A stretch of DNA of 60,000 bases, from the NCBI GenBank assembly GCA_044892525.1, contig CM097885.1:22880001-22940000 (forward strand). The letters run 5' to 3'. Source of the stretch: Schmidtea polychroa (lineage: Eukaryota). The notes under the pieces are model-generated. The model did no database searches. It saw only the letters and a program-made list of their open reading frames with translations, and was not told the DNA's origin. The translations under genes were made by a program, and so were the position numbers. Shown one piece after another: positions 18,199 through 41,438 of this stretch. Each line of letters begins with the position of its first letter. Positions within the stretch are counted from its first letter, which is position 1.

Positions 18199-19901
<1,703 letters not shown>

Positions 19902-20080
19902 GACTCCACTGTTATTGTTGTATTGTGTGAGCACACACTCGTTATAATAATTAGCAATATGAATAGAGTTTTCATGGTGTATCAAATCAAAACCTTTCTT
20001 TTACATTTATAGTCTATCAACCAATCAAAATCATCCGGTATTAGTATAAATAAAACATCATATTTTAAATTATTGTAAAA

Positions 20081-20601
20081 ATGTCTCAATTTATGGAAAA
20101 TCTTTTAAGAGAACTCGTCAACAGGAATATTATGGAAAGCCTATGTTTCCTGGTCGATCGGACCGAAAAGATTATAGAAGGTAATCACATTGATTATGAC
20201 GATGTGATCAATTCTGATTGTCTCGAAACCAAAAAATTCTATTTTAATAGAATTTTTAACTGTCTATGCGACGATCAGATGAAGTGGACCCGAATACTAG
20301 TAGGGTTCGCTTATATGAAAATAATAATCCAAAGAAGTCTATGGGACTCAGAGCACTATTATCAGTGGTCTCAAGAAGTAATACTTTTATAATTTATATT
20401 TTATTAATATTTATTTTCTAGATAATCAAGTCAAAGTTTCAACCATGGATTGAAGCCAATGGCGGATGGGGAGTACTCAATCAACTCGCCAGAAATGCAA
20501 AAGAAATAGACGATCAGAAAAGAAAATTTAAAAACTATGTAAAACTTGCAACAGGTGTTGCTATTTTGTATATTTTAACCAGATTTTTAAATAAAAATTA
20601 A
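20081..20601 (+). CDS. Bcl-2 family protein, 2 exons (20081-20377, 20422-20601), 158 aa
   Basis: BH1-like FNCLCDDQMKWTRILVGFAY; after a 44-bp phase-0 GT-AG intron, BH2 PWIEANGGW and a C-terminal TM anchor LATGVAILYILTRFL preceded by basic residues. Confidence 0.88.
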
Positions 20602-20684
20602 TATAGTTATTTTTGTTTGATTTTTAAATAAATTTTTAAATAACATTTTAAATAAATTTACAAACACTAATTAACTAAGATTTA

Positions 20685-21056
20685 TTAATTAACACATTCG
20701 CAGTCGTCATCTCCACATTTCATTATATTTTCAACGACATGATCAATACAATCATTCGTAATATTATCTTTAGATTCATCTTTAGGTTCCTCTATAGGTT
20801 CCTCTATAGGTTCATAGATTTCCTCTTGAGTTTCTTCCTCATCAATTTCTTGAGTTTCTTCCTCATCATCAAATCCTGTATCTTGACTCTCAACTAACCA
20901 GCCGATATTTAAGGCATTTGTAATAGATAATATATCCTCCATTTTCACACCAGATATTTCTGCTAACTTTTCCAACAAAAAGTTGATTAAAAATTCTAAA
21001 TAATAAATAATTCGGTAATTAATTAATTAATCATGTTAACCTTTTTCTACAGTCAT
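20685..21056 (-). CDS. Small acidic protein, 2 exons (21056-21041, 20995-20685), 108 aa
   Basis: ATG exon MTVEK joined in frame through a 45-bp GT-AG intron to EFLINFLLEKLAEISG...; Glu-rich repeats (DEEETQE, IEEP). Confidence 0.65.
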
Positions 21057-21191
21057 TTTCATCACTTTAAAACTAAATTATAAGTTTGTTTATAGATTTT
21101 CTTTGTTAAATTTGCATGTCATTTGCATTTATGTTGCAATTAATAAAGAGAAAAAAAACAAATCTGACTAATACATTTATTAAATATAACA

Positions 21192-21602
21192 TTAAAATAT
21201 TTGTGAAAGTCTAGCAGACATAATTTTCCAAATAGGAGAATATACATCATTATTATCAACTTTATATCCCTGGATTGCAATTGTTATATACCAATTTTCA
21301 TTTTCTTTGAAAGCGATTTCATCAAAGGAATCATAAAATCTTGCATATTTATTGTTGAACCATGCATGTTGATTACACGATAGATTCGAATCTATCCGTT
21401 TAAAAACATCATCAATAGTTTTGACATCAATCATTGAAAGCGTGCCGGATAAGAATTCAAATTTAGTTGGAATTAGCTTGACTGGTGCAACCAATTTCAT
21501 ATTGATTTCTTCTTTCAAAAAATACATTTTGTAGTTGTGGAACATTTGAACTGGTTGTACCATTTCTTTAGGTTTTTCGGTGCTTGAAATTTTCTTGGTC
21601 AT
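21192..21602 (-). CDS. Putative OB-fold ssDNA-binding protein (136 aa)
   Basis: Beta-rich; C-terminal WYITIAIQGYKV....YSPIWKIMSAR resembles the end of viral gp2.5-like SSBs; TATA and CCAAT boxes upstream. Function is inference. Confidence 0.5.
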   Translation of the reverse strand: MTKKISSTEKPKEMVQPVQMFHNYKMYFLKEEINMKLVAPVKLIPTKFEFLSGTLSMIDVKTIDDVFKRIDSNLSCNQHAWFNNKYARFYDSFDEIAFKENENWYITIAIQGYKVDNNDVYSPIWKIMSARLSQIF

Positions 21603-21962
21603 CGTGAATAATGAATAAATTTAAATGTTACAGGGTTTTTATACCTTTGACTCATGCCTATCAACCAATCAGATTATAGCATGTCTTTGTTTAAATTGCA
21701 TTCAAAATGCATTGATGTTGCATTGTCACATGTTCTATTTACAGATTTATTATTAATGTTTAAATTATTACATGTTTTGATATATGTACAGATTTATTAT
21801 TAATATGTTTCATTATTATTAATGTTTTTACTATTATTACTATTCATATTTCTATTACTATTATTATTATTATTACTATTATTATTATTACTATTATTAT
21901 TTCAAATATAAAACACAATAAAACACAATAAAAAAGATAAAACACAATAAAAAATACATTTA

Positions 21963-22376
21963 TTAATAACCCAAATCTACAATCTTGGAGTAGTGAAACC
22001 TTCTCAGAGTTTTCACTAACTCCCATTCGACATATCGCCGATATCGATCGGCGCAACATGAGCATCCGATGATGCACTGGTACTCTGGCTCCATTTGTTT
22101 GATGGTTCTGTTAATCTTTATATCCCACAGAAACTGGTGAAATACATCCATGATTCGAATTTGAGTCGCATAGAATATCAGATCTGGAATGATCTCAGGT
22201 TCGCGATCCTTGATAATTTCAATAATTTGAGGATAATAATATTTTATCCTTTTTATCATAACTTCTAAATATTTCTCTAAAATAATAAATAGTAAATAAT
22301 GTGAAAAAAAAATTTTAAATTTACCGGAATCGTCGATATCTTTCATGAGGGTTGCAGAGCTTGGTAATTTGTACAT
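21963..22376 (-). CDS. Hypothetical protein with CxxxCxCC motif, probable 48-bp intron (22277-22324)
   Basis: ATG at 22376; an in-frame AT-rich GTAAAT...TTTTAG segment looks intronic; three CCAAT boxes at ~22430-22466. Confidence 0.55.
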   Translation of the reverse strand: MYKLPSSATLMKDIDDSGKFKIFFSHYLLFIILEKYLEVMIKRIKYYYPQIIEIIKDREPEIIPDLIFYATQIRIMDVFHQFLWDIKINRTIKQMEPEYQCIIGCSCCADRYRRYVEWELVKTLRRFHYSKIVDLGY

Positions 22377-22450
22377 AGTGTTGAAAAAATGAATTCTAAA
22401 CAAAAAACCGTTTGTTTAAATCAATCAATAACCAATTAGAAATTAACCAA

Positions 22451-22888
22451 TTAGAAATCGACCAATGAAATTATCTCATTTCGAACATTGTCAACAAATT
22501 CTCTATACTCCAAATTTCTCAACCCCAACATGACAACCTTTCCACTAGCAAACACGTTGACACATATAGGGTTATATTTTAATAGTCTTAGTGCCGGAAA
22601 CAATTCCGGTTCAAACATACAATCACATTTTTTCGACATGTTATATAGATTGATACTATGTCCCATATCCATAGTAACGGTAATTGATTGGATTTTAATA
22701 TTATTTATTCGATATTGTAATTTATTAATATCCAAAGGTTTCTTACATCCCATGATTCTGCATTTACCAGTCTTGAAAAATATTATCGGATATTTCCCAC
22801 TTCTATCGATAATTTGCTGGGGTTTCCCTGGTGGGAACCTCATATTCGATACATCAAAATTTCCTCGATAATTTATATTTGCTAACAT
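22451..22888 (-). CDS. TATA-binding-protein (TBP)-like protein, 145 aa
   Basis: Two-repeat TBP core: LANINY / IIFFKTGKCRIMG and IQSITV...INL / FEPELFPAL / VNVFASGKVVMLG (cf. TBP YEPELFPGL...LIFVSGKVVLTG). Confidence 0.88.
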   Translation of the reverse strand: MLANINYRGNFDVSNMRFPPGKPQQIIDRSGKYPIIFFKTGKCRIMGCKKPLDINKLQYRINNIKIQSITVTMDMGHSINLYNMSKKCDCMFEPELFPALRLLKYNPICVNVFASGKVVMLGLRNLEYREFVDNVRNEIISLVDF

Positions 22889-22987
22889 TATTAAATCATT
22901 TATGAAAATTAGTCTTTATATACAAATTGAGCACGAGTTCATTAAATCATCGAATATAAACAAATACACATTTATAAAATATTTGAA

Positions 22988-23614
22988 ATGGAATTAAGAA
23001 ATGATGCTGTATACCAAATCGTTGGTCCGAGTGGTAGTGGAAAAACATTATTTGTTTGTAAATTACTAAAATCCAATTTATTCAAATCAAAATTCAACAG
23101 GATTTATTGGCATAGGGGTGCTGATGAAGAACATGGATTAACTCAATCAAGTTTCTGTAAATTAAAAAACATGAAAATAGTAAAGGGATTCGATAAAAAC
23201 TGGTCCAGCCGATTAAAGAAAGGCGATGTCATTATTATCGATGATTTGTATCAAGAAGCTAATAAAGAAAAAGATTTTAATAATTTATTTACAAAGATTA
23301 GCAGACATGTCGGTGTAACAGTTATTTTCATAACTCAAAATCTATTTCATCAAGGTGGGGCACATCGAACACGTAATTTAAATGTACAATATTTAGTCAT
23401 TTTCAAGAATCCTAGAGATGCAACAGTGATTGATTTTCTTGCACGTCAAGCATACCCTAACAATCGTAATTTTCTTATCAGTGCATTTCAAGATGCTACA
23501 AAAATACCTCATGGATATATATTTCTTGATTTCACACAACAATGTCCCGATGATTTACGTGTAAAAACAGATATTTTCAACCCAAAAGGTGCCATGGTTT
23601 ATAAACAAAGTTGA
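22988..23614 (+). CDS. Genome-packaging ATPase (A32/FtsK-HerA type)
   Basis: Walker A GPSGSGKT, Walker B IIIDD, SRH..VTVIFITQ, R-x-N and FKNPRD motifs typical of Polinton ATPases. Confidence 0.95.
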   Translation: MELRNDAVYQIVGPSGSGKTLFVCKLLKSNLFKSKFNRIYWHRGADEEHGLTQSSFCKLKNMKIVKGFDKNWSSRLKKGDVIIIDDLYQEANKEKDFNNLFTKISRHVGVTVIFITQNLFHQGGAHRTRNLNVQYLVIFKNPRDATVIDFLARQAYPNNRNFLISAFQDATKIPHGYIFLDFTQQCPDDLRVKTDIFNPKGAMVYKQS

Positions 23615-23632
23615 AAACCTCTATGAATAATA

Positions 23633-24166
23633 ATGTTTCTAAAAGCAAGGGTGAAAAATATTAGGAAATTAAGAAAAGGTATTAGAAAGACTATTAAAGT
23701 TCCAAAGGTTCCACCAACAACTAGTTATACACCATCTAAAAAACTTGTAACTGAAAATTTCTCTGCAATGAATCTTATTTCGAAAAATCCTAAACCTAAA
23801 CGTAAAACCCGTAAAACCCGTAAAACCGGTAAAAAAGTAGTTAAAAATCATCGCAGTTTTCCATTTTTTAATGCATTGTTAAAGGCTCCGAGTATGAAAA
23901 GAATGAATATATTGCAATCATTCCCAAATTTTGTTGTCGATGATTTACTCAATATTATACTTAAAGTAGTCAAAGGCAAAATTAAAATCAGTAAATCAAA
24001 AAAGCATTTATTGAGCAAACATAGGAAACCTTTATTATCTTTAGTAAATAATAAAAATCGTAAGCAAATGAGGAAAATTATATATAAACAACAAGGTGGA
24101 TTTATTGGTGCCTTGATACCTCTGGCATTATCATTATTAGGTGGAGTTGTAGGAAATCAATCATAA
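23633..24166 (+). CDS. Basic core protein with adenovirus pX(Mu)-like C-terminus
   Basis: Very K/R-rich; ends QQGG|FIGALIPLALSLLGGVVG, resembling the adenovirus pX GG|[FI]LP.LIP.IAAAIG tail. Confidence 0.75.
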   Translation: MFLKARVKNIRKLRKGIRKTIKVPKVPPTTSYTPSKKLVTENFSAMNLISKNPKPKRKTRKTRKTGKKVVKNHRSFPFFNALLKAPSMKRMNILQSFPNFVVDDLLNIILKVVKGKIKISKSKKHLLSKHRKPLLSLVNNKNRKQMRKIIYKQQGGFIGALIPLALSLLGGVVGNQS

Positions 24167-24169
24167 ACA

Positions 24170-24397
24170 ATGGGTGCTAATCCTTCATTGCCCGACATTA
24201 AATTTAATTTTAAATCTTCTTGTTGTAATGGAGAAGATTTGGACGAACCCAGAAGACGAAGCCGGTTTCGGTGGAGTGGCAAAATTAAACAAAAGAGTTC
24301 CGAATTCGAAAAAAGAAACCCAGAAGTGGTTATCAGATCAGCTTGCGTACAGTTTGAACAAACCAATGCGGAAAAGATTTCCAACAAGAGCGTATAA
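24170..24397 (+). CDS. Putative small myristoylated protein overlapping the integrase 5' end
   Basis: Starts 3 nt after the pX-like stop in context ACAATGG; MGxxxS motif, CC pair and basic patch. Confidence 0.4.
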   Translation: MGANPSLPDIKFNFKSSCCNGEDLDEPRRRSRFRWSGKIKQKSSEFEKRNPEVVIRSACVQFEQTNAEKISNKSV

Positions 24398-24615
24398 AAC
24401 ATTTGGTATTGACGATTTATGGCAAATGGATTTGATGGAGATGATACCATATTCGAAAATTAACAATGGGAATAAATATATTTTAACATGTATTAATGTA
24501 TACAGCAGGTTTGCACGAGCAATACCAGTCAAGGCAAAATCTGCAGAAGAAATGTCCAAGGCAATTAATATTTTATTTAAAGATGGACATCCTAATAATT
24601 TGCAAACAGATTTAG

Positions 24616-24704
<89 letters not shown>

Positions 24705-25334
24705 TTAGGTAAAGAATTCTACAATAGCAAAGTTAAGCAAATCCTCGATAAACTGAAAATAAATCACTACTCGGTACATTCTCAATACAAAGCTGCCCAT
24801 GTTGAAAGATTTAATCGAACATTGAGAGATAGATTAAAGAAATTGTTCGTGCATCAAGGTAATAAAAAATGGGTAAATGCTTTACCGAAAATAATAACAA
24901 GTTATAATCATTCATCACATCGAGGACTGAATGGATTGAGACCGGTTGATATTACATCAAAAACACCATTATCTAAAAAATCTGTAAAAATTGCAAAACC
25001 TAAATATAAAGTCGGTGACCATGTTAGAATTAGTAAAATTAGTGCATCACCATTTATTAAAAATTTTGATACAAATTGGAGTGATGAAGTCTTTGTAATT
25101 TCAAAAATAAATACTAAACAGAATCCTGTAATGTATGTCATCAAAGACAATGATAATAATATTGTACAGGGGAAATTTTATGAGCAGGAATTACAAGTCA
25201 TTCCTCCCCCAAAAGTATTTAGAATTCAAAAAATATTGAAAACTAAAAAGGTCGGTAAGGATAAACAATACTATATCAAATGGCACGGTTATCAAAACCC
25301 GTCATGGATATCGTCAAAAGACCTAGTAAAATGA
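24228..25334 (+). CDS. int: Retroviral-type (rve) integrase with C-terminal chromodomain; 2 exons (24228-24615, 24709-25334), 337 aa
   Basis: WQMD, LQTD-LG-KEF (after removal of a 93-bp intron) and VERFNRT DDE motifs; YKVGDHVRI, NWSDEVF, GKFYEQEL; chromodomain RIQKIL...YYIKWHGY..PSWI. Confidence 0.95.
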
Positions 25335-26335
25335 ATTTTTATATTATTTTACCTAGCAATAGCTGTCCACTTATTCATCCAGATAATAAAGCCAGCAAAT
25401 TCAGGGTCAATCTTCAAAATCCGATATATTTGGATAATAGCTGGGAAGTTGCTCTGTTGGATTTTACATTTGTATACCAAGCCTTTCCATTTTATAGTAA
25501 GGCTAAAATTGGATACAAAAAGAATGAGTGGCAGGATAGATTATTGTCTATGATCATTGATAATGCAGATGATGAAGTTCGGTTGTCTAACTCAACTGAT
25601 CCAGCTGTGAAAATGTATATTAACCATTCATATATAGTAGTTGAATGTAAACATTATCCTTTTACTGTAAAATTTGATAGTTTGGAAATGGCAAAACGAT
25701 TGGAATTAAAAACCCAAAGTCATAAAGTTCTTTCCGATAAATTCACTATGCTACGACCGGGATATTCCAAAACTGTACAGCGATTTGAACCAATTTTATT
25801 TACAGTTTCATATCCGGGTATAACGTCTGGTACATTTGAGTTCAAAGATAATTTATACATTTCGAAATTGGATGAATTACAGACATATTTAAAACAAAGT
25901 GGTTTATTTAAATCATTGGAAATATCAGACAGATTCAAATTCAGTTTGAATCCCGAATTTACTGAAATTACTTTTGATGCAAATCTAATAAAAACATTAG
26001 GATTATCAAAAGCAACATATGCTCAAGATGATCAAGGTACCCTAGCTCCGAAAATAATTAAACTTCACCAACAAATGTTCATCTATAGTAATATTGTTGA
26101 TCCTGTAATTGTTGGCGATTCTTTGGTCCCACTCCTGAAATCTGTTTGGATTGAAAAATATGAACATGATGAAGTAGTCAATATAAATATCGATAATCCC
26201 ATGTATTTACCTGTGTCAACCTCATGTATAAACAATATAGAAATAAATATACGTGATGATTCTGGTAAATTAATCGCATTTCCAAAAGATTCAAAAACTC
26301 ATTTAACATTACATTTTCGTAAAGTAGATGGCTAA
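25331..26335 (+). CDS. Minor capsid protein (penton)
   Basis: N-terminal FYIILPSNS...N....F...L..P..L...WEVAL and C-terminal IYSNIV....VGDS..PLL...Y.PV....I..IEI.IRDD.G...LHF motifs; ATGA overlap with the integrase stop. Confidence 0.9.
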   Translation: MNFYIILPSNSCPLIHPDNKASKFRVNLQNPIYLDNSWEVALLDFTFVYQAFPFYSKAKIGYKKNEWQDRLLSMIIDNADDEVRLSNSTDPAVKMYINHSYIVVECKHYPFTVKFDSLEMAKRLELKTQSHKVLSDKFTMLRPGYSKTVQRFEPILFTVSYPGITSGTFEFKDNLYISKLDELQTYLKQSGLFKSLEISDRFKFSLNPEFTEITFDANLIKTLGLSKATYAQDDQGTLAPKIIKLHQQMFIYSNIVDPVIVGDSLVPLLKSVWIEKYEHDEVVNINIDNPMYLPVSTSCINNIEINIRDDSGKLIAFPKDSKTHLTLHFRKVDG

Positions 26336-26693
26336 TTCGGATATTATAAGTATGTATAGTGGTAGCCAATCTGGCGGTGAATTACCATATTTTATTGGTA
26401 AACAGTACGGATCAGGATGGTTGAGAACAATTGGTAGATTTGCACTTCCTATTCTTAAACGTATTGGTAGTTTTGGTATGAAAACTGCTAAAGATGTTAT
26501 TATGAATGAACAGAAAATATTACCATCTCTAAAATCAAATGCTTTAGCAGAATTAGGGAAAGTTTTACCCGGGGTTGCAGGTATGTTTCAAAAACCAGCT
26601 CCAGCTCCAGCTCATGCTCCAAAACGTAAAAGACATGGAATATCACGTATAAACAAACGAATGAAAGGCCATGGAACTATATTTGCAAAATGA
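26328..26693 (+). CDS. Conserved Polinton virion core/cement protein (PW-like)
   Basis: QSGG.LPYF.G.QYGSG followed by an amphipathic basic helix (WLRTIGRFALPILKRIG); lies immediately upstream of the MCP. Confidence 0.7.
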   Translation: MANSDIISMYSGSQSGGELPYFIGKQYGSGWLRTIGRFALPILKRIGSFGMKTAKDVIMNEQKILPSLKSNALAELGKVLPGVAGMFQKPAPAPAHAPKRKRHGISRINKRMKGHGTIFAK

Positions 26694-27913
26694 TTTGTGG
26701 TAAATCTGAATTATGTATATTTGATAGACCGTCGCCCCAGGCTGTAATAGAATTTGGGGCGTTTGAGGAAGTTTTTCCAATGAATTCAATTACTGATAGT
26801 AGAAATGATATAGAGTTTTATATTAATGGTTCGCAAACTGAATATTTAGATTTGAACGATACTTTATTGACTGTTCAGATCAAGGTTATAGATAAAGATA
26901 AAAAAGCTTTGGGTGATGCTGCTGATGCAATACCGAACAATTTCATGTTTCATACTCTTTTTAAAGATGCTGTGTTGGGATTTAATAATATCAAGATTGA
27001 AGGTGGTAATAATACATTCATTCACAAGGCTTTGATAGAAACTATTTTAAATTACAATTCCGATACTAAAAATACATGTCTTACTCCAATGGGATATGCT
27101 GCAACCGACGATGAAAGAAAAAAGTGGATTAAAGGCTCAAAAACATTCACCATGTGTTCATCGTTACAACTCGATTTTATGGATCAACCGAAATATTTGC
27201 TTCCAGGAGTTAATGTCCACATTCGATTGAAAAGATCCGATTCTGCACTAACTCTTACTAGTGCTACAGGTGCACCAATATGTCAATTAGTTGATGCAAA
27301 ATTATTGGTGAGAAGAGTTCGAGTAGACCCCTCAGTATTAGCTGGTCATCAATTGGGTCTTAATTCAAAACATGCAATTTATCCATTAAAAACAAAGGAA
27401 ATTGTACAATTTGCTATTGCTAAAGGTGCTTCATCATTCTATAAAGAACAAATATTTGGTGACAGAAGAATGCCTAATTTTATTCTGATAACATTTCAAA
27501 GTGAAGCACAATATAATGGATCATATACTGCGTCCAGCTCAATTTTCAAAAACTTCGGTGTTACATCATTGACTTTGTCGAAAAATACTGATTATAGAGA
27601 AACATATATTCAAGATTTCGAGAATGACAATTACTGCGCGACATATATGCAGAGTATTGTTAGAAATCTCGGTTATTTAGATAAAAATTTGAATTGCGGA
27701 ATAACACTAGAAGAATTTAAAAGCAAATACCCATTTTTTACATTTGTTTTAGCCCCTGATTTTGATTTAAATCAAAGTCAATTACCTCAAAATGGAAATT
27801 TACGACTGGATATAAAGTTTGCAAAAGCTATTACTGAACCAGTACATGTTATAATATATGGAGTATTTGAAAATGAAGTTCAAATTACTGCAAATAGAAC
27901 AGTGTTGGTATAA
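26690..27913 (+). CDS. Major capsid protein (double jelly-roll)
   Basis: C.KSEL..F start, IEF.I.G...YLDL..T.L, Q.KYL..GV...I.L.R, G.LRL..KF...L......I.YG.F...V.I...R motifs of Polinton MCPs. Confidence 0.93.
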   Translation: MICGKSELCIFDRPSPQAVIEFGAFEEVFPMNSITDSRNDIEFYINGSQTEYLDLNDTLLTVQIKVIDKDKKALGDAADAIPNNFMFHTLFKDAVLGFNNIKIEGGNNTFIHKALIETILNYNSDTKNTCLTPMGYAATDDERKKWIKGSKTFTMCSSLQLDFMDQPKYLLPGVNVHIRLKRSDSALTLTSATGAPICQLVDAKLLVRRVRVDPSVLAGHQLGLNSKHAIYPLKTKEIVQFAIAKGASSFYKEQIFGDRRMPNFILITFQSEAQYNGSYTASSSIFKNFGVTSLTLSKNTDYRETYIQDFENDNYCATYMQSIVRNLGYLDKNLNCGITLEEFKSKYPFFTFVLAPDFDLNQSQLPQNGNLRLDIKFAKAITEPVHVIIYGVFENEVQITANRTVLV

Positions 27914-28325
27914 ATGTATACAGAAACACAAAAAGTTATCATGGAGTAAGTTGTTTTTTATACTCTGGATTTATTTAAATAGTTCTGTTCAGGTCAATAA
28001 AATCGGAAAACAGATATTGGGAAATGAATTTGTTGGAGTTTTTCCTCTTGATAAAATTCCATATTTGAGCAATAATCAAGCAATAATCGTCAATACTCAA
28101 TCGTCTCATCTTGGTGGAGAACATTGGATAGCTATATATGTGAAACCTGGTAATATATTCGTGTTCGATCCTATGGGTTTCTATTACCCAGCTTTGTTGA
28201 TATCAAAACTACAAACAATGGGAAAACCTATTGTGTATAATAAAACTATGTTTCAAAATCCTTTGACCCAAACATGCGGTCAACATTGTTTAGCTTGGTT
28301 ATTGTACAAAAAATTTGATGTTTAA
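27914..28325 (+). CDS. Adenain-type cysteine protease; 2 exons (27914-27945, 27983-28325), 124 aa
   Basis: F.GVFP.D, IVNT.....GEHW, FDP.G, Q.....TCGQHC catalytic motifs; a 37-bp GTAAGT...AG intron restores the MDSVQV start. Confidence 0.92.
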
Positions 28326-28414
28326 AGAAAAATGTTTAATAAATTTGATGTTTAATAAATGTATCCTTTCCTTTGTTGTTGTGTTATTATTATTAATATT
28401 ATTATTATTATTAA

Positions 28415-28460
<46 letters not shown>

Positions 28461-28821
28461 ATTATTAATATTATTATTATTGTGAAAAATATTATTATTT
28501 TTAATTAATTTTATTATTATTCTAATAAATATTATTATTTGTAACATAAAGACTGCCTTTGCATGAGGCATGCACAGTGCAAGTTAACAAAGGCATGACT
28601 AACAAAGGCAGTCACATGTAATTCTGACTGATTTACATTACATACATGCATGCGTGTGATTGGTTGAGAGAGTAAAATATTCAATGTATATGTGTGTGTG
28701 TCTATATTCTCATTGGCTGGGACAGGAAAATATTCATTCTCTTTATAAACATTGACAAATCTAAAATTTGTCACAATTATTTCAAATTTTTCAAATTTCG
28801 ATTTCAATTTTAAAAATCTAA

Positions 28822-29496
28822 ATGGCTAACAATAATAAAAATGGAATTCTAAGAAATCTTTTGACGACAATGGGTAATTTATTTTATTTTATTTTATTAT
28901 ATTTTATTTTATTATTATTTTAGAACCATTCGATTGGTACGATGTAACGGAAGATGACTCGATATTAACAGTGGATAAGATCTTCGGTAAATTTATTATT
29001 ATAATTTTTAATAAATTATTTTTTTTTCAATTCAGAAAATGCTTCAAATAGCGACGATGATGTCGTCTTTATCGGGGAAAGTAATGCTCCTAATAAGATC
29101 TTTGGTAAATTTATTATTATTTTTTTTATTAAATTATTTTTTTTTCAATTCAGAAAATGTTTACAATAGCGACGATGATGTCGTCTTTATTGGGCAAACT
29201 GATGCCCCTAATTATGCCCCTAATTATGCCCCAGTTCTCAAAGAAAAAAGTAAATTTTATTATTATTTCTATTAAATTAATTTTCATTTCAGAAAATGTT
29301 TTAAATGTTGATATTGACGAAGAAGAAATTAATGTCCTCGCATCGGATGATGGTGAAATCTGTGAGAATGATGGGCAAATCTCATCGGATGATGATCAAA
29401 TCTCAGAGAATGATGGGCAAATCTCATCGGATGATGATCAAATCTCAGAGAATGATGGGCAAATCTCTGAGAATGATTCCGACATGGAATCAAAAT
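28822..29496 (+). CDS. Five small exons (28822-28873, 28924-28986, 29036-29104, 29154-29249, 29293-29496) encoding an acidic leader with SIM-like motifs; probably the 5' part of polB
   Basis: Four 43-50 bp phase-1 GT-AG introns keep one open frame; duplicated exons encode SDDDVVFIG; ends at a phase-1 donor GTAAGA at 29497. Confidence 0.7.
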
Positions 29497-30244
29497 GTAA
29501 GAAATATTTATTTTTATATATATATTTTGTTTTTTATTTATATGTTAAATTTGTAATAACTTATTTAAATATTTTGATAAAAAACTTTTTTAAATATTTT
29601 AATAAAAATTATGATGAAACTTCTGAAGAAAATGATTTTATGATTTATAATGAAAATATACCGAAAAATTATGAAGAAAAATGATTATATGTTTTATAAA
29701 GAAAATGATGAAAATATGACGAAAATTATGATGAAGAAAATTATGAATTTATGATGAAGAAAATAGGATGAAAATCAATTATGATGAAAATGATTTACAA
29801 CCAAAATTATGATGAAAATGATTTATGATGATATAATGAAAATGAATTATGATGAAGATATGACGAAAATTATGATGAAAATGATTTATGATGATATAAT
29901 GAAACTTCTGAAGAAAACTATTTTATGATGAAAATTATTTATACCGAAAATTATGAATTTATGATGAAAATGATTTATGACCAAAATTATGATGTAAATG
30001 ATTATACTAAGTTTCTGAAAGTTATTATTATCAAAATATTTAAAAAGTAAAAAAAAAAATCAAATTTTATTTTATTAAATTTCTCGGGCCTCCTGGCCAA
30101 GAAGGGGAGATCGATTCTCACCCTTATGTAATCTGAAGCTTTTATTTGGATAAACAATAGATGCTGGAGTGTAATACTCCTACATTAAACGTTCTGTAAG
30201 AGTTCTGTCAGGTTTCGGTATTAGTTGTTGATGTTAGGAATTGT

Positions 30245-30821
30245 TAGGAGAGGCTTGTTAAGGCTTCTGTCAGGTTCAGTATTGTTAAGGCTTCTGTCAG
30301 GTTCAGTATTGTTAAGGCTTCTGTCAGGTTTAGTATTGTTAGGCTTCTGTCAGGTTCAGTATTGTTAGGGCTTCTGTCAGGTTTAGTATTGTTAGGCTTC
30401 TGTCAGGATCAGTAGGAGAGGCTTGTTAGGGCTTCTGTCAGGATCAGTAGGAGAGGTTTGTTAAGGCTTCTGTCAGGTTCAGTAGGAGAGGCCTGTTAAG
30501 GCTTCTGTCAGGTTCGGTAGGAGAGGCTTGTTAAGGCTTCTGTCAGGTTCAGTATTGTTAAGGCTTCTGTCAGGTTCAGTATTGTTAAGGCTTTAGTATT
30601 GTTAGGCTTCTGTCAGGTTCAGTATTGTTAAGGCTTCTGTCAGGTTTAGTATTGTTAAGGCTTCTGTCAGGTTTAGTATTGTTAAGGCTTCTGTCAGGTT
30701 CAGTAGGAGAGGCTTGTTAAGGCTTCTGTCAGGTTCAGTAGGAGAGGCTTGTTAAGGCTTCTGTCAGGTTCAGTAGGAGAGGCTTGTTAGGGCTTCTGTC
30801 AGGTTCAGTAGGAGAGGCTTC
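30245..30821. repeat. Tandem minisatellite of 26/27/35-bp units (core GGCTTCTGTCAGGTTCAGTA)
   Basis: Many direct copies visible, with outliers at ~30200 and ~31150-31215. Confidence 0.9.
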
Positions 30822-31619
30822 TATGTGGTTAGGAGCACTAAAAGTTAATTAAGTAGGGCGGAGTTGGAAGACTCCATTTGTGGTCAAATATTATACATTA
30901 TATTATATTAAGTATTAGAAAGATAGGTCAAAGGAAGAGGTATTATTAAAGATAGGTGGTTATAATGGATATACAACAAACTAAGAACTAAAAAAATTGA
31001 AAAAAAGGAATTATCAGTGAGGCGGAGCCGCTACAGGGGCTCCTACATTGACCTACACTGATAATATACACGGATAATATGTCAGATAGTTTAGTTGCAA
31101 TCTGAGTCCTAGGTGGGACGTGGGAGGTTTGTCGGGTGATGTTTTAGTATTGTTGCGGCTTCGGTCAGGTTCTGTAGTAGCTGTTGGGAGAGGCTTGTTA
31201 AGGCTTCTGTCAGGTTTATTCATCAAAGGATGTGGTTGGATTCATTCAGGTTATATTTGCTGTAGATTATAAGTAAATATATTGTATATAGATATAGGGT
31301 TTTCCCATTCCGGTCAGTGCTATGAATGTTTTAAGAAACAGAATAATTCAGATAATCATATCAATTTATTTCTAAATGTAGTTTAATATCAATTAAAGTA
31401 AATATAGGAAGGATGTTGTATAGATTTATAGTTAGAGAGATAATGCAATTTTAAATTAAGATTAGTTAATATTCATAAGAGGAGTATGATAAGTATATAT
31501 AGTCAAATTAAAATTGACTCAAAAATCAAAGTTAATTTAAATATTAGGAATATAAATTAGCGAATATAAATGAGGGTATTTAATATATATACATATATAT
31601 TGTAACTTAGTTAAATTAT

Positions 31620-32725
31620 TTAGATTGAGATATTTGAAAATCTCAATTTCCAAAATAACTAGTAATTTAAACAATTGTCAATTAAATTCGAAATGTATTT
31701 TATTACCAATTTAATTCAAAAAGTATTTTATTATAAAATTATTTAATTAAATATAGATAGGATTATGTATACAATAAAATTTTAAATATAGTTAGTATTC
31801 AAAAGATGAATATATATATAGTTAACCAAAATCCAAGTTAATTCATACCTTAAGAGATTAAGGTATAGATATAGTCAAATTAATTAAATTTTAATGAATA
31901 TAATTTTATAATAGGAAATTATAAATAAGGGTAAGTTTTATATCTAGTATATATAAAGATAACGATATTTGAAAATTTCAAATTCCAGGATAATTAGTAA
32001 TTTAAACAAATATCAATTAATTCAATATATAGATATAGTTAAATTAATTATAATTAAGCTTTTAAGGAATATAGTTTTATAATGGTGATATGAAGGTTAG
32101 ATATAAATAAGGGTATATATATATATATATATATATGAGAAATTAAATATAGATAGGGGTACATATAATTTATAAAAAATTTAAACAAAATTTAAACAAG
32201 TGTATTTTATTACCTATTTAATTCAAAAAGTATTTTATTATAAAATTTAATTAAATATAGATAGGATAATGTATACAATAAATTTTAAATATAGTTAGTA
32301 TTCAAAAGATGAATATATATAGTTAAATTAAAATTAAACCAAAATCCAAGTTAATTCAAACCTTAAGAGATTAAAGTATAGATATAGTCAAATTAATTAA
32401 ATTTTAATGAATATAATTTTATAATAGGAAATTATAGATAAGGGTATTTTTTATATCTAGTATATAATGATAGTAAAATTATTTAAATTGAGATATTTGA
32501 AAATTTCAAATTCCAAGATAATTAGTAATTTAAACAAATATCAATTAATTCAATTTATAGATATAGTTAAATTAATTATAATTAAGCTTTTAAAGAATAT
32601 AGTTTTATAATGGTGATATGAAGGTTAGATATAAATAAAGGGTATATATACATACATACATATATACATACATACACATATATATATATATAAATATGAG
32701 AAATTAAATATAAATAAGGGTATAT
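31620..32725. repeat. Imperfect ~0.5 kb AT-rich tandem duplication
   Basis: Blocks such as TTTAATTCAAAAAGTATTTTATTATAAAATT (~31710, ~32217) and GATATTTGAAAAT recur. Confidence 0.75.
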
Positions 32726-32768
32726 ATAAAAAATGTTGAAGATATTTCACCGTGATACATAGCTGAGC

Positions 32769-34532
32769 TTATAAATCCAAGTTGCAGTCTGCATCATAGG
32801 ACGAATCGGAAGTAGAATCTGAATTGGAGATATTATCGGAGTCTGAATCACAGGGAGGATCGGAAATGGAATCGGAGCTAGAGATGTTAAGAGGGTCTGA
32901 ATCTGTGTATGTGCATTCAGTGATGTAGTTTGGAGCATAGACACGAACGGAAGCATAATTTCGATCATACTCAGAAATTGAGTCAGAATCTGGGTATGAA
33001 TCAGTATCAGAGCTAGACTCGGAATCTGGATCAGAATCAGAGAATGACTCTGAATCTGGATATGAATCAGGTTGTTTCTCAATATCTGTCATCTTCTTTT
33101 CAATAATACTGTCATCAATAAGATTTATATAGTGGGCATTCAGTGTTGTAGAGTGGTTTTGAATTTGGGCTGTTGGTAGATAAGTATTCATGATAAATAG
33201 ATTATCTTCTTTGTTGGCAGTTTTAGTAGGCTGTTTTTCAGTATCCGGTTTTGTTTTAGTAATGCTGTCGTCCATAATATTGACATTATGGGCATTCAGT
33301 GATGTATAGTTTTTTGAATTTTCGGCTGTTGGTGGATCAGTGTTCATGATAAATAGATTATCTTCTTCGTTTGTATTATTAGGTTCATTGCTCGGTAATT
33401 CGGTATTAGATCTAGAATTGTCATCTGTTTGGACTTCAACATCGTACCTAGCAGATAATAAATCGAAATGCATATTATCTAGAGTATTAATAGGTTTTAT
33501 TGGTATAGGACTAGAGTAGTGGGGTCTAGGTAGGTTAATATAGTTTGAGGTTTTTGGTTTCCAAATTTTGACGGTCGGTTTTGGTATAGAATAAGGTGGA
33601 TTTATTTGAGTTATTGTATTATTCTTAGGTCTCCTGCCAACATTTTCCGGGAGCCGGCCTCGGGCCGGCGAGCTGCGTATATTATTCTTTTCGTCCTCCG
33701 ACGGAGGACGAAAAAAATTTTCAGCATGGTCATCAGATCTGAAATTTGGTGAAAATTTAAACAAATTTTCCCTTAAATTTTCTTTAAATATTTTAATTTT
33801 TCTATTTTTGATTTTGTTAATTTTTCTTTTTCTCTTTTTATAATTAAATTTCACGTTATTAGGCTTTTCATTATTCATTTTTACATTATTAGGTTCTACA
33901 ATATTAAGTTTTACATTATTATTAAGTTTAGTATTATTAAGTTTTAAATTATTAAATTTTACATTATTAAAATCATTTATGAAAAAATCATTATAATATT
34001 TAATGTTAAGATTATTATTAAGAAAGGATATATATTTGATACTTTGAGAGTCTTTTTTATAATTTTTATCAAAGGGTGTTTTTTTAATTTTATCTTTATA
34101 AGAAATATTATTAGCAGTATTATTTTTGAAAACATTTTTATAATTAGATAGGTAATTTTGATTATTAGTTACTTTTAGCAGCCATATTTCTATGGCCGCT
34201 TCGAACGCGTTTAGGAAATCCACGTGCTGTTCATGGACCAGGTCTCCTATGATGAAACTTCCAAAGACCATTTTATCGGCATATTTGAAAGTGTTTAAAC
34301 TGATGTTCCTAAAGTTGGTGCCGATACTTTCCCATATTGCGATTCGAAGATCCTGTGACATATCAATGTTTCCTGCAAAATAGTTAAATAATTGATAAGC
34401 AAGATAGAACTCATTGATTTCTGCCCCAGTGCTAGTGAATGTTATATGGAGTAATTCTACTAAGCACTGAGGACTTTTACAGAAAATTTTCAGCATGGTC
34501 AAATTATGGTTATAAATCCTTGTAGTTTGCAA
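32769..34532 (-). CDS. Hypothetical 587-aa protein: globular N-terminal ~125 aa, basic NLS-like region, Ser/Asp-rich tail
   Basis: A long stop-free ORF in very AT-rich DNA; KKRKRK, duplicated EDNLFIMNT..PTA motif and SD repeats; no family recognised. Confidence 0.7.
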   Translation of the reverse strand: MQTTRIYNHNLTMLKIFCKSPQCLVELLHITFTSTGAEINEFYLAYQLFNYFAGNIDMSQDLRIAIWESIGTNFRNISLNTFKYADKMVFGSFIIGDLVHEQHVDFLNAFEAAIEIWLLKVTNNQNYLSNYKNVFKNNTANNISYKDKIKKTPFDKNYKKDSQSIKYISFLNNNLNIKYYNDFFINDFNNVKFNNLKLNNTKLNNNVKLNIVEPNNVKMNNEKPNNVKFNYKKRKRKINKIKNRKIKIFKENLRENLFKFSPNFRSDDHAENFFRPPSEDEKNNIRSSPARGRLPENVGRRPKNNTITQINPPYSIPKPTVKIWKPKTSNYINLPRPHYSSPIPIKPINTLDNMHFDLLSARYDVEVQTDDNSRSNTELPSNEPNNTNEEDNLFIMNTDPPTAENSKNYTSLNAHNVNIMDDSITKTKPDTEKQPTKTANKEDNLFIMNTYLPTAQIQNHSTTLNAHYINLIDDSIIEKKMTDIEKQPDSYPDSESFSDSDPDSESSSDTDSYPDSDSISEYDRNYASVRVYAPNYITECTYTDSDPLNISSSDSISDPPCDSDSDNISNSDSTSDSSYDADCNLDL

Positions 34533-34570
34533 TGTGCATCTACAATAGTTAAAATAATAATAATAATAAT

Positions 34571-35025
<455 letters not shown>

Positions 35026-35032
35026 TTTCTTT

Positions 35033-35077
<45 letters not shown>

Positions 35078-35280
35078 TATAAATAATAATCAGACCCCGT
35101 CTACTAAAATCTCTCTAATATTCTATCGAATATATTAACCTATTTTCTATAATGATTTATCATCATTTGTTATTTAATTCAAATGAACTATATAACAAAT
35201 GATGATAAATCCTTGTAGAAGTAACAATTAGTTTTCTATATAGAAAAAAACAATAAAATTTTAATTTTATTATTTAACAG

Positions 35281-38200
35281 GTATACTATACCCGAACTAT
35301 TGTCAAACATCAATTGGACATAGTGATAAATGTCATAGAACAATGACAAAATATTACCGAAAAAAGTTTAATTCGGTCAACTTTTTTATATGCCCCAAAT
35401 GTGTAACGAGCGAAAAAATAAAATATAGGGAATTTTTTAATAAACATCATAATCACTTAGGGCAATTTTCGATATCAAAAAATGTTTTATTTAAAAAAAT
35501 AAATAAAAAATTAAATAAAAAAAAAAAATTAGAAAATAATTTACAAAAAAACTTACAAAAAAATTTAGAAAATAATTTACAAAAAAATTTGCAAAAAAAT
35601 ATTAAAAAAAATAAAAAAAATATTATTAAAGATTCAAATATTAAAAAAGATGCTATTAAAAAAGATACTATAAATATTATTAAAAAAGATATTATAAATA
35701 TTAAAAAAGATTCTATTAAAAGACCTGCTGGTTTAATTAAAAATTGCATTCCTAATAAATTATCGCGACCTGAAGTGATAGTCATCAGCAAAGATGAATG
35801 TGTAGCTTCAACATCGTTTACACACCAAGCACCCATTACACAACACGCACCCATTACACAACAAGAAGTGATAGTCATCAATGATGAATGTGTAGCTTCA
35901 ACGTCTTTGAACATATGCCAAATAGGCGGCTCTTTATTTGAACCTATGGTAGAATCCGATTTGAACGGATCGCGTAAAACTTTAAGATTTGATATTAGAA
36001 ATCAAAACTTAGTAAAAATAGCCCTAACATCAAAAATTGAAGATAGATTAATACAGGAAATAGAAAAGATGGGCAATGTAAAAATTCAATTCACAATTTT
36101 AATTAAATTTGAAAAAGATGGGGAGATCCGGGATAATTATTTTTCAAACAATGCTCAAGTTTTTACATCAAACTTTATAAACGAGGGGGTGAGCAAATTA
36201 AATGAAAAGATTGAGCAATTCACCTATTTAGGAAGCGGGTGGCGAGTAATGAATATTTTAGAAATAGATTTTATTTTAACGAAATACGCACCCGTCAGTA
36301 GATTATCCGGACATAGCTATATAAAAACCCCATCAGCATTAAAATTAAAACATGCAATAATTAATGTAAAAAACAACGACCATAAGTGCTTCTTGTATAG
36401 CATTCTTGCACTTTTAAAAAGAGAAGAAATAGGTCGTAATCACCAAAGAGCCGCCAAATATATAGAATTTTTACCTCTATTAAATTATGACGAAGACACT
36501 GATTGCCCGATGAGGCTATGCAACATTCCCAAATTTGAAAGAAAAAATAGAGATTTAAACTTGAGCATAAACGTTCTGTCTTATAATCCAGCCAGTTCTG
36601 ATTTAGATATTTCTGAGGATTATGTAGCTCACCACCCTCATCTTAATATAGTACATCGCTCCAAGGTTATAGACGGTAGACCAATTTATTTATTACTTTT
36701 GAGTAATAAAGATAAATATCATTATACAGCCGTGACAGACTTGGACAAATTAATGAATTGTCATGAAAATGAAAATGTAAATGTTCAAATAAGGTGTAAC
36801 TGGTGCCCACATTGTTTAAATGGCTTTAGATATAAGAATGCTTTCGATCAGCATGTTGCTCTATGCTGTAAAAATCAGACTGGCACAACTTTGTATACAC
36901 TTCCTAAAAATAAAGATTTATTATTCACAGATTACGCGAAAACAGTTACACCTCCCTTCGTAATTTATGCCGATTTTGAATCGGTTTTACCAGAACATGA
37001 AACATATCATCAAATACATTTACCCATATCAGCAGGTCTTTTATTAATTAATAATTATACACACACTAAATTTTATTATTATTTTTTTGGACCTAATTGT
37101 ATTTTGGATTTTTTGAGGAAAGTGGAGGAAATTGCTGTCACAATTGTCCTGCCATATTATGATCTTGAAGGTCGTAAAGGTATGTCTACTTTGTCTTTTG
37201 CTCAGGAGCGTGCCTTTCGATCTTCCACTATTTGTTATTTGTGTAAAAAATCTATTATTAATCCTGTGAGAGATCATTGCCATTTTACAGGTAGATATGT
37301 CGGAGCGGCATGTAGGAAATGCAATGTCTCTCGCAGGATTAATAAATTGTTACCTGTTGTCTTTCATAATTTACGAGGCTATGACCTCCACCATATTTTA
37401 AAACATGGTCTCAGTGATTTTCCCCTTTGGGAACTTAATATTATACCTACCTCTACAGAAAAATTTATATCTTTAATTGCATATATTAACAAATTGCCTG
37501 TTCGTTTTATTGACAGCATGCAATTTGTTAATTGTTCTTTAGCAAAAGCTGTGAAAACCTTAACTACTTTTCCTTTGACTTCGTCTGTCTTTCAAGGGTC
37601 GATGATTCACTCTAAAGGTATCTTTCCATATAATTTCGCCACTTCTTTAGATGTTCTTGAATCGACTTTAGAATTACCTCCTATTTGGTCTGATGTTACG
37701 GAAGATCAGTACGCTGAGGCTCAACTAATTTGGAGTCAGCATAACTGTAATAATTTGTTAGATTATATGTTAATCTACCTAAAATTGGACGTATACCTCC
37801 TCGCAGATTATTTTCAGCAATTCCGCGGTAAGGCAATTGCTTACAATGGTCTGGATCCTCTTAATTTCTACGGGATTCCCGGTATGTCATGGGCCTCAGC
37901 GCTTATGACATTAACGGAACCAATAGAACTTCTGCAGGACATGGAAATGTATAATTTCTATGAGGGAGGTATCCGGGGTGGGTTAACATTTGTTAACAAA
38001 CATTACACGGCTACTTCAGATGATACAGAATTATTGTACATTGATATAAATAATCTGTATGGTTGGGCTCTTAGCCAAAATCTTCCGTATGGTGATTTTT
38101 CTTGGGTGAATAATAACTTGAATGATGTTTTACTTGAATGTATGAACACGGATATTGATAACCTTCCATATGGGTATACTATGGAGGTCGATATCGATAT

Positions 38201-39338
38201 TCCGGAATGTGTGCATGACTTTTTGAATGATTTTCCGCTTGCGCCGGAAAAGTTGTGCCCGCCTAATTCAAAAGTTGAGAAGCTTATGCTTACGCATTGG
38301 CCAAAGAGGAACTATGTTCTTCATTGGAGGCTTCTCAAATTGTATATAGAATTAGGTGCGGTTGTTGTAAATATTCATAGGTGTATAAAGTTTAAACAAG
38401 GACCTATCTTTAAATCCTACATAGACACCAACACCACTTTACGATCTCAGTCTACTAGTGAGATATATAGGGACTTGTTTAAATTGTATAATAACTCTCT
38501 TTACGGTAAATCGGTTGAAAATTTGAAAAAAAGAAGGAATTTGAGGTTGTGTAATTCATCCGAAAATATGATAGTATACTCCTCAAAGCCGACTTTCAGA
38601 AAGTCCATAAGAATCGATAACGATCTGATTGCGGCACATTTGGAAAAAGATGTGATTTGTTTAGACAGACCTAGCTACATTGGTCAAACAGTACTAGATC
38701 TGTCTAAACTGCGGATGTACCAGCTCCAATATATTGATTTGGAGAAGTACAGACGCCAATATAAATGTATCATAAATATTATTGCCGGTGATACCGACAG
38801 TTTCTTTTTGGAAATAAAAAATTTAAAATTAACAACTTTATTACCTCAGATGATCTCTGATAATTTATTGGATACATCAAATTACGATCCAACCCACCCC
38901 TTGTATAGTAGGAACCTTGACTCGGTCATCGGGAAGTTTAAAGATGAGAGCAAGGGATTAGGGTATTCTGAATGGGTTTTCTTACGCCCTAAATGTTATA
39001 GTCTTTTAGGTAGTAAGGAAACGGTAAAAGCAAAAGGGGTTAAATTACCAGGGACATCAATAAATCACGAATCATATCTAAATTGCTTTCATTCAAATCA
39101 GGTGATTTCTGTACCGCAGACTAGAATAGGTACTAGAAATCACCAACTTTTTACTTTTAAAAATTCGAAAATTGCCCTAAGTAATAATGATGATAAGCGC
39201 GCGTGGCTAGGAAAAAACTTAAGTTACGCATTTGGGCACTATTTAGGAGTTGACGAATTAAGCGAATATGATGAGGAATTCGGTCCAGCTCCAAGTCCCA
39301 GTTTTGACGACAGCGAATGGGACGAAGATCAAATTTAA
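35281..39338 (+). CDS. polB: Protein-primed family B DNA polymerase (main exon; first in-exon ATG 35343) with terminal-protein/vOTU-like region and EndoVII-like insertion
   Basis: GSGW, DHKCF...HY, ExoI YADFES, CxxC..DHCHFTG.Y.GAAC..CN, ExoII FHNLRGYD, motif A YIDINNLYGWA, motif B KLYNNSLYGK, motif C GDTDS, KCY, KAKGV, DDKR. Confidence 0.97.
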
Positions 39339-39659
39339 ATAGAAAAAACTTTATATTTTTGATTCATAAAAACTTGTATAGTGATTTCATGATTTATAAA
39401 AAATTGTATAGAAACTTTTATTTAAAAACTTGTACAAAAACCTGTATATTGTATAAAACTTGTATTTATATATACATATTCAATAAAATTTTTAATCAGA
39501 TTTTTTAAGTATTTGGTGTTTTATTATAATTTTTTTATATTTAATGGTGATTTTTATATAGTCTGCAGTGAGCATGCAGCTATATGTTTTATATAGTCTG
39601 CAGTGGGCATGCAGCTATATCAATGAAATAATAATAATAATAATATTAATAATATTAAT

Positions 39660-39741
<82 letters not shown>

Positions 39742-39749
39742 TTAATAAT

Positions 39750-39801
<52 letters not shown>

Positions 39802-39879
39802 CTTTAAACAGGTTGCAAAGGGTACTAGTCATGCTTATTATTGTTATACATTTGATGGTTACATTTTGAAAGCTCTATT

Positions 39880-40311
39880 TTGATTTTTAATAAATCAATA
39901 TGTGTTTGTCCGAATACAGCCAAGTTGATGGATATTTTATATATTCTCGATAAACCAAAATGGTCAAAGCATCCAGGAAAAAGAATATCTCAAAGATTGG
40001 AGAATTTAGAAAACAGTTATGAACTAACATTTGAATATATACAAAATATAAAAATTAAATTGATTGATCATATTGAGGTTTTCAATAACTCTATTACTGA
40101 AAATAAAAAGAATATGAAGATTATTGATAAGAAGCATGATTATTTGTTAAAAAAGATTGAATTATTATTAAGAGAAATTCAAACAATCAAAGGATCAATA
40201 GAATATCTAAAAATCAATTCAACGTTACCAATTTCTAACAATAATGCTGCGAATAGAAGTGCATCAATATTTAGTTTACCTTTGTTAATTTTACATTATT
40301 TTATTGTTTAA
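39880..40311 (+). pseudogene. 5'-truncated TIR copy of the coiled-coil/GPI-type gene
   Basis: Protein identical to 19475-19975 from FNKS onward but lacks the signal peptide; the ORF opens on TTG. Confidence 0.7.
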
Positions 40312-40436
40312 ATAAATGTATGTTTTGTTGATTTGTTGAGCGTGACCAGTACCCTTGTGAGCATTACCCATAGGGGGACAAAATATTTTGTCGGATAGAC
40401 TCAGAGTATATAGACTCGGTGTATATAGATTAATAC

Positions 40437-40493
<57 letters not shown>

Positions 40494-41438
40494 GATATAT
40501 GGCTCATTCGAAAGGTCTTGGATTGAGCTTTAAAATGAGCTATCGATTATTAATTTTCGTTGGCGGGAACTTTGAAAAAATTAAAAATAAAATAATAATA
40601 TTTTTAAAAATAATAATAAAAATAATAATATTTTTTAAAAATAATAATATGACCTTGATGAGTCATCGCGATGACTCATATGACCTTGGGAATGACCTTG
40701 GATGAGTCATGTGACCTTGAAAATGACCTTGATGAGTCATAGGATGACTCAGATGACCTTGAAAATGACCTTGAAAATTTTGATGAGTCATCGGATGAGT
40801 CATATGACCTTGAGAATGACCTTGATGAGTCATAAGATGAGTCATATGACCTTGAAAAAAATTTCTCAAGGTCAAATGAGTCATACTATGAGTCATATGA
40901 CCTTGAAAATGACTTTGATGAGTCATACTATGAGTCATGTGACCTTGAAAATGCCCTTGATGAGTCATATTATGAGTCATATGGCCTTGAAAAAAATTTT
41001 TCAAGGTCAAATGAGTCATACTATGAGTCATACGACCTTGAAAATGACCTTGATGAGTCATACCATGAGTCATATGACCTTGAAAATGACCTTGATGAGA
41101 CATGGTCTTTGTTTAAATGACCTTGAGAAAATTTTTTTGACCTTGATGAGTCATATTGTGAGTCATATGACCTTGAAAATGACCTTGATGAGTCATCGGA
41201 TGAGTCATGGTCTTTGTTTAAATGACCTTGAAAAATTTTATGAGTCATAGGATGACTCATGGTCTTTGTTTCAATGACCTTGATGAGTCATATGTCTTTG
41301 TTTAAATTTGACCTTGAAAAAAAATGTACTTTTAGACTTAGAATATTTTTGAAAATCTTACCGACGGGGGGGAGGGGGGAGGGGGGGGGGGTACTGTGCT
41401 AGCGGTGCCCTGTGCCAGCGGTGCCCAATCCATCTACT
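39885..41438 (-). repeat. Right terminal inverted repeat (1554 bp)
   Basis: Reverse complement of 18199-19901. Confidence 0.95.

Follow-up and report, generated by a model that had tools for sequence, protein, structure and literature searches.

The window is the whole stretch of 60,000 nucleotides of Schmidtea polychroa DNA that was analysed (contig CM097885.1, positions 22,880,001 to 22,940,000 of the forward strand); all positions below are counted from its first letter. It contains a complete Polinton/Maverick element (Table 1) with terminal inverted repeats, AG..CT ends and a 6-bp target duplication, and with genes of an integrase, an A32-like ATPase, an adenain protease and a double jelly-roll capsid protein. 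Pfam matches to Pox_A32 and Peptidase_C5 were above their cut-offs, that to rve (E 1e-5) was below; in Foldseek the major capsid protein matched PBCV-1 and mavirus capsids as well. The polymerase frame, with what we take to be PolB-type motifs, gave no match to PF03175 (Pfam PolB). A small gene for a TBP-like protein, designated vTBP, lies head-to-head with the packaging ATPase gene. In line with the original prediction, Pfam found no RNA polymerase family among 22 ORFs scanned; tblastn with a single host TFIIB-like query, which a very divergent gene could escape, gave no match either to the element or to any of 81 related loci.

Table 1. Features of the Polinton and of its virion module (window positions; late box, site containing ATAAAC)
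Feature	Position	Strand	Basis or remark
Whole Polinton, 23,240 bp	18199..41438	.	AGT..ACT ends, long terminal inverted repeats, 6-bp target duplication CATATT
vTBP gene, 145 aa	22451..22888	-	two-lobed TBP core without N-lobe helices H1 and H2
Canonical TATA box TATATAAAG	22914..22922	-	starts 34 nt before vTBP ATG; putative early, host-TBP promoter
Late box TATAAACA	22955..22962	+	ATAAAC begins 32 nt before ATPase ATG
Packaging ATPase (Pox_A32-like)	22988..23614	+	Pfam
Late box inside ATPase 3' end	23600..23607	+	32 nt before basic 177-aa ORF
Basic 177-aa ORF, putative core protein	23633..24166	+	composition and position; no family match
Two late boxes	24083..24090, 24162..24169	+	before 75-aa ORF and integrase
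Retroviral-type integrase with chromodomain	24228..25334	+	Pfam; probable ATT-repeat intron 24616-24708 (GT..AG)
Late box GATAAACA inside integrase 3' end	25260..25267	+	before putative penton gene
Putative minor capsid (penton) gene	25280..26335	+	position alone
Late box	26227..26234	+	100 nt before 121-aa ORF
121-aa ORF	26328..26693	+	
Late box	26648..26655	+	41 nt before major capsid ATG
Double jelly-roll major capsid protein	26690..27913	+	Foldseek E 3e-16 to iridovirus capsid
Adenain-type protease	27858..28325	+	Pfam; upstream TATAAAT (27909) instead of late box in this copy
Family B DNA polymerase, main frame	35343..39338	+	BLAST 1e-49 to L150 polymerase frame

The vTBP gene is present in at least 150 intact copies: 150/150 scored among 4,174 genome candidates were 99–100% identical and free of stops; 30 genomic copies examined showed 0–9 base differences from the window. 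Probable GT..AG introns were seen in the integrase gene (24616–24708; ATT repeat, in-frame readthrough) and at the protease start (27946–27982). A Bcl-2-like ORF (weak Pfam match, E 0.01) is located within the element at 20081–20392. The neighbouring 136-aa ORF (21192–21602, minus strand) gave no Pfam or Atlas match and was found near vTBP in 21/80 outside loci, in either orientation; presumably it resembles a small single-strand-binding protein. An intronless host MFS transporter ORF (11412–12866) lies outside the Polinton.

For the 145-aa product a bare two-repeat TBP core had been predicted. Pfam TBP (PF00352) was matched with 57.1 bits (cut-off 22.9, E 1.6e-15) over residues 63–125 only, and in sequence searches of Pfam and PDB the TBP match was confined to the second half of the protein; the first repeat was recognised by structure alignment. 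The AlphaFold model (pLDDT 96.4; 90-sequence alignment) was aligned with solved TBP cores over 140–145 residues (VIA Z 11.1–13.3, rmsd 2.4–2.9); the best 38 VIA rows were TBP entries without exception, and the next non-TBP fold had Z 6.7. The predicted core was thus borne out over its full length, and the lack of a TBP fold hit, named beforehand as a refutation, did not occur. As modelled, vTBP belongs to the TBP fold family and forms a two-repeat saddle. It is neither a canonical TBP nor a protein of the ORF24 family: only three of the four Phe of canonical eukaryotic TBP were found, the N-lobe H2 basic patch (TFIIA, TAF1, Mot1, Brf1) is gone (13 residues are absent and the model shows no helix there), and vTBP is not a large multidomain protein devoid of the acidic stirrup, as ORF24/BcRF1 family members are, which bind Pol II by an N-terminal and DNA by a C-terminal domain.

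Residues of vTBP were mapped to what we take to be yeast TBP numbering. F38, F97 and F113 correspond to F116, F190 and F207 (labels as in Table 1 of PMC12529657, with F99 as the fourth), in agreement with the prediction that three of the four intercalating Phe are kept; P23 stands at the F99 position, where Pro was found in 207 and a gap in 20 of 227 family rows, these rows being selected by likeness to the window protein. The C-terminal stirrup EPELFP, read from the sequence originally, is present, and its acidic residues for TFIIB are kept in the family (E93 in 218/227, E95 in 223/227). Near-invariant changes of the DNA face in the same rows were N6 (199), R44 (212), M46 (225), S68 (222) and T70 (199), and in the C-lobe R101 (218), C109 (220) and N111 (223). 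The N-lobe lost F99 and gained N6, Q25, R44 and M46; the equivalents of P191 and N69 are retained. In the available part of PMC1636458 the altered-specificity yeast TBPm3 is changed at the positions matching R101, C109 and N111 (I194, V203, L205); it is also given there that the two TBP lobes share the box, the C-lobe touching its 5' half and the N-lobe its 3' half, that Pro191 restricts box position 1 and that C is disfavoured downstream in the box. By its title, entry 1qn3 is a crystal structure of host TBP on a C(−25) variant. Judged from sequence, the DNA face of vTBP appears rewired at known specificity positions and more polar, with the TFIIB stirrup retained.

Remodelling of the N-lobe had been ascribed to its stirrup. 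The lobe is indeed altered, but not in the stirrup alone: about 11 residues (H1) and about 13 residues (H2) are missing from vTBP in alignments, and the model has no helix at TBP H1 and a mere turn at H2, the helix that in TBP bears the patch for TFIIA, TAF1, Mot1 and Brf1 (PMC7221094, available part). A divergent vTBP clade (L090/L099/L100) retains H1- and H2-length segments and shares most of the DNA-face changes.

Relatives of vTBP (37–97% identity) were recovered as 109 of 113 candidates. Among metagenome loci (best 80 of 182 matches) at least one Polinton core gene was found in 37/80, and in 25/34 loci of at least 3 kb; the linkage to Polinton genes looked for in other elements is conserved. 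In viral contigs no vTBP family member was found (P0001 0; profile one distant TBP, L031; capsid and ATPase queries 0). The window vTBP was compared with nine intact sister frames, dN/dS being 0.08–0.22 in 9/9 pairs, although dS approaches saturation for the three remotest frames; the gene is intact and under purifying selection in sister families, and the absence, decay or neutral evolution in sister elements that would have spoken against the original prediction was not observed. In trees with host TBPs, a comparison proposed at the outset, the vTBP family came out as a single long-branch clade (SH-aLRT 100), separate from the six TBP-related sequences of the host, the larger tree being a quick tree. 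AU tests in which vTBP was joined with eukaryotic, virus-like, archaeal-like or host rows, the group labels being guesses from sequence appearance, rejected none of the placements (p 0.29–0.70; vTBP family with three host paralogues, p 0.29). The host itself has at least six TBP-related loci (L112–L117), of which three are divergent in sequence and have long unbroken frames. A divergent TFIIB-like gene of 301 aa without introns is present in at least 13 copies, in two clusters (G000 C1:23.85–24.19 Mb and C3:38.2–39.1 Mb; L156, L157).

The gap between vTBP and the ATPase ATG is 99 bp. Short length and TATA-like sequences on both strands had been noted for this spacer; the length and both boxes stand, but the boxes are of different kinds, a canonical TATA box towards vTBP and a late box towards the ATPase. 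Both TATATAAAG and TATAAACA were found in 30/30 genomic copies examined. Contigs of three runs guessed to be RNA span the vTBP gene and the divergent spacer, where RNA and DNA are indistinguishable. The divergent arrangement recurred in 12/12 sister-family loci picked by ATPase similarity and in L148, some of them broken; of 26 outside loci with both genes, 23 have vTBP upstream in the same orientation, 2 have the divergent arrangement and 1 has vTBP downstream. The head-to-head layout, emphasised originally, is therefore local and lineage-specific, and was rejected as a functional unit.

ATAAAC was found within 100 nt upstream of the ATG in 58/62 de-duplicated virion-module windows of vTBP-bearing elements (shuffles: 5.7 expected), namely ATPase 24/24, major capsid 11/11, penton 12/15, 121-aa ORF 6/7 and 75-aa ORF 5/5; it was the top 6-mer found de novo in such windows and is strand-specific (reverse complement in 1/62). 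This count leaves out the integrase, whose upstream region overlaps the 75-aa ORF, and ORFs with the start unaligned to the query, among them almost every core and protease gene; in a separate check with 220-nt windows the box was present at the core gene in 9/9 loci and at the protease in 6/9 outside loci with upstream DNA. The consensus is (T/C)ATAAAC(A), with T or C at position 1 in 46/50 sites and A at position 8 in 44; the distance to the ATG is 6 to 100 nt, and 31–36 nt for the ATPase in 13/14 first near-clade loci. Upstream of vTBP and its neighbour ATAAAC was present in 8/71 windows. Canonical TATA was found in 31/56 windows upstream of vTBP genes, and position 7 of the TATA-like boxes there was T or A in 31/33.

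Late boxes are found in intergenic DNA as well as in coding sequence, there in each of the three phases; the codons of the box were used by only 37/209 background Ile-Asn pairs, and in phase 1 (xxT-AAA-CAx) codon bias alone yielded the motif in 37/45 background cases. Both vTBP sub-clades have the box, so that it follows the DNA face, not helix loss. Since box and vTBP gene share ancestry, the p-values overstate independence: the loci with context represent about two deep clades of vTBP, and the controls three lineages. Two more ATAAAC boxes (window 28745 and 21093) precede short or probably multi-exon ORFs, which are candidate late genes. In the divergent clade a phospholipase A2-like gene is situated near vTBP (L100 9086–9487, L083, L088, L090, L143), with ATAAAC upstream in L100, L083 and L088.

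Polintons with no vTBP seen served as controls: ATAAAC was found before 2/39 of their genes, the controls being few, covered in part and partly GC-rich, with gene labels partly guessed. A second, distant AT-rich Polinton group of the same genome had the box before 0/17 genes, with no vTBP profile match in the DNA covered (elements incomplete); the GC-rich Polinton fragments L144–146 had it in 0/16, and L147 before 2/6 genes, with no vTBP in the half covered. In many genes of the second group (L120, L122, L149, L150, L151) the ATG immediately follows an A/T run whose last letters are TAAA or AAAA; late starts of poxviruses resemble this, and a different transcription system might be involved. 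In L145 (about 5200 and 7640) and L146 (about 935 and 3315), from symbiont bins, TATAAGAC and TATAAAGAC were seen before some virion-module genes, possibly as another box variant.

Taken together, vTBP is probably an element-specific TBP of altered specificity that acts as a late transcription factor of the Polinton; its binding, timing and expression we infer to be as follows. Host TBP/TFIID would transcribe vTBP early from the ordinary TATA box. The protein would bind the minor groove of the late box, with its C-lobe on the 5' half and its rewired N-lobe tolerating C at position 7, a base that host TBP would disfavour there, and the intact acidic stirrup would recruit host TFIIB and Pol II. 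In this sub-clade the loss of H2 would remove the TAF1/TFIIA/Mot1/Brf1 patch, by which vTBP could work outside TFIID and escape eviction; as the divergent clade keeps H1 and H2, this step would not be general. The outcome would be an early-to-late switch for the capsid, packaging, protease and integrase genes. Redirection of host Pol II/TFIIB to late promoters had been suggested from the sequence originally, and it is supported both by the box in vTBP-bearing Polintons, with its near absence elsewhere, and by a DNA face rewired at specificity positions with the TFIIB stirrup kept. Against a late factor stand the TATAAAT of the window protease gene, the 3/9 outside protease loci without the box, the 8/71 early windows that hold it, canonical TATA in only 31/56 vTBP windows, the loss of one of the four intercalating Phe, the spread of distances to the ATG, the codon bias in phase 1, the boxes of L147 and the C(−25) variant in the host TBP crystal. 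We lean, by a little, towards a wider formulation, a minimal orthogonal core-promoter system of a broad animal Polinton lineage, in which a single altered-specificity TBP of 145–170 aa and a dedicated ATAAAC promoter would drive a genuine viral early-to-late cascade with host TFIIB/Pol II alone, outside TFIID, and would have originated independently of herpesviruses; if true, this would be evidence that Polintons are programmed to build virions.

It is unlikely that a host factor (host TBP, a paralogue or a Forkhead protein) reads the box and that vTBP has another job. ATAAACA does fit the Forkhead consensus RYAAAYA, TATAAAC is one change away from canonical TATA, and the host's TBP-related loci number at least six; however, GTAAAC, the usual Forkhead core, was found in only 4/62 windows (reverse strand 1/62), the spacing before the ATPase ATG is fixed in 13/14 first near-clade loci (31–36 nt), and the box is missing (0/17) from the second Polinton group in the same genome. 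A dominant-negative decoy, offered originally as the alternative, would titrate host TFIIB or block TATA boxes and so damp host or element transcription, and could also repress at the box. With such a function the kept TFIIB stirrup and the loss of one Phe and of the TFIIA/TAF1 surface would agree, but about eight near-invariant new DNA-face residues would be needless, and a co-occurring box before virion genes only would be left unexplained; the decoy is weaker than the late factor on these grounds and seems distinctly unlikely.

The TATAAAT of the window protease gene, together with the box before some non-virion ORFs (e.g. window 28745, L100 9086), would be expected if vTBP, with relaxed specificity, boosted the promoters of the element in general, without early/late logic; the split of 58/62 versus 8/71 argues against this, and we regard it as very improbable. 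Hardly credible is a recently captured, functionless host TBP copy with the box as codon bias or a polyadenylation signal. The DNA is AT-rich, and the box, which includes TAA, coincides in some loci with an upstream stop codon; such a copy is nevertheless contradicted by the purifying selection on vTBP and by its separate long-branch clade (SH-aLRT 100) away from host TBPs, the box is not AATAAA, since the preceding base is A in only 1/50 sites, and the window ATPase box lies in a divergent spacer where no gene ends.

To our knowledge it is an open question how Polintons without RNA polymerase or helper virus time their capsid genes, and this bears on whether Polintons are working viruses; now that there is a factor with a candidate site, a single small protein and a short oligonucleotide would be enough to test it. 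The ATAAAC box may help to annotate late genes of vTBP-bearing Polintons, and vTBP, as a natural changed-specificity TBP without the regulatory surface, would be useful for studying initiation.

A TBP-like gene was noticed earlier in at least one Polinton-related genome, where it is known from a legend entry alone: the label 'TBP' is found in MELD virus/adintovirus maps of Starrett et al. 2021 (PMC8502044, Fig. 5 legend) and in the legends of Figs 5 and 6 of the preprint (10.1101/697771). The word 'promoter' is absent from the preprint text as available, no TBP function is discussed in section 10 of PMC8502044, and the first 4 million characters of the 2021 supplement are free of 'TBP'. For a Polinton TBP, late promoter or ATAAAC the literature covered, which excludes figures, Repbase records and subscription papers, gave the Starrett legend only; the available part of PMC10675990 describes TBP in mirusvirus-like repeats, not Polintons. 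The evidence provided here consists of the occurrence of the box in two deep vTBP clades, the comparison with vTBP-less controls and the mapping of residues.

Cellular TBP (PF00352; yeast, human and archaeal cores) has the same full-length two-lobed saddle as vTBP, with the equivalents of F116, F190, F207, N69 and P191 and the acidic C-lobe stirrup in common; vTBP differs by about 25% identity only, 145 versus about 180 aa, Pro at F99, a polar DNA face, deletion of H1 and H2 in this sub-clade, and a separate clade. KSHV ORF24 and EBV BcRF1 would be alike in the viral TBP fold, the polar DNA face, a variant late-gene TATA and the use of host Pol II; the structure search gave a weak match to BcRF1 (rank 47, E 0.024). 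As given in the available part of PMC12529657, ORF24 is polar at V122, V161 and L205 (Table 1), reads TATTWAA late promoters with host Pol II, has 752 aa, including domains that bind Pol II and ORF34, needs five partner proteins and keeps four Phe without the TFIIB acidic residues, whereas vTBP is a bare 145-aa core with an intact stirrup and no partner seen. TBPs of large dsDNA viruses, according to PMC7221094 as available, have lost the N-lobe regulatory signature and occur mostly with an own TFIIB, the stirrup being variable; the viral TBP fold and the loss of the N-lobe signature are shared by vTBP, whereas its element, with no TFIIB-like or RNA polymerase gene seen, has kept a stirrup of the host type.
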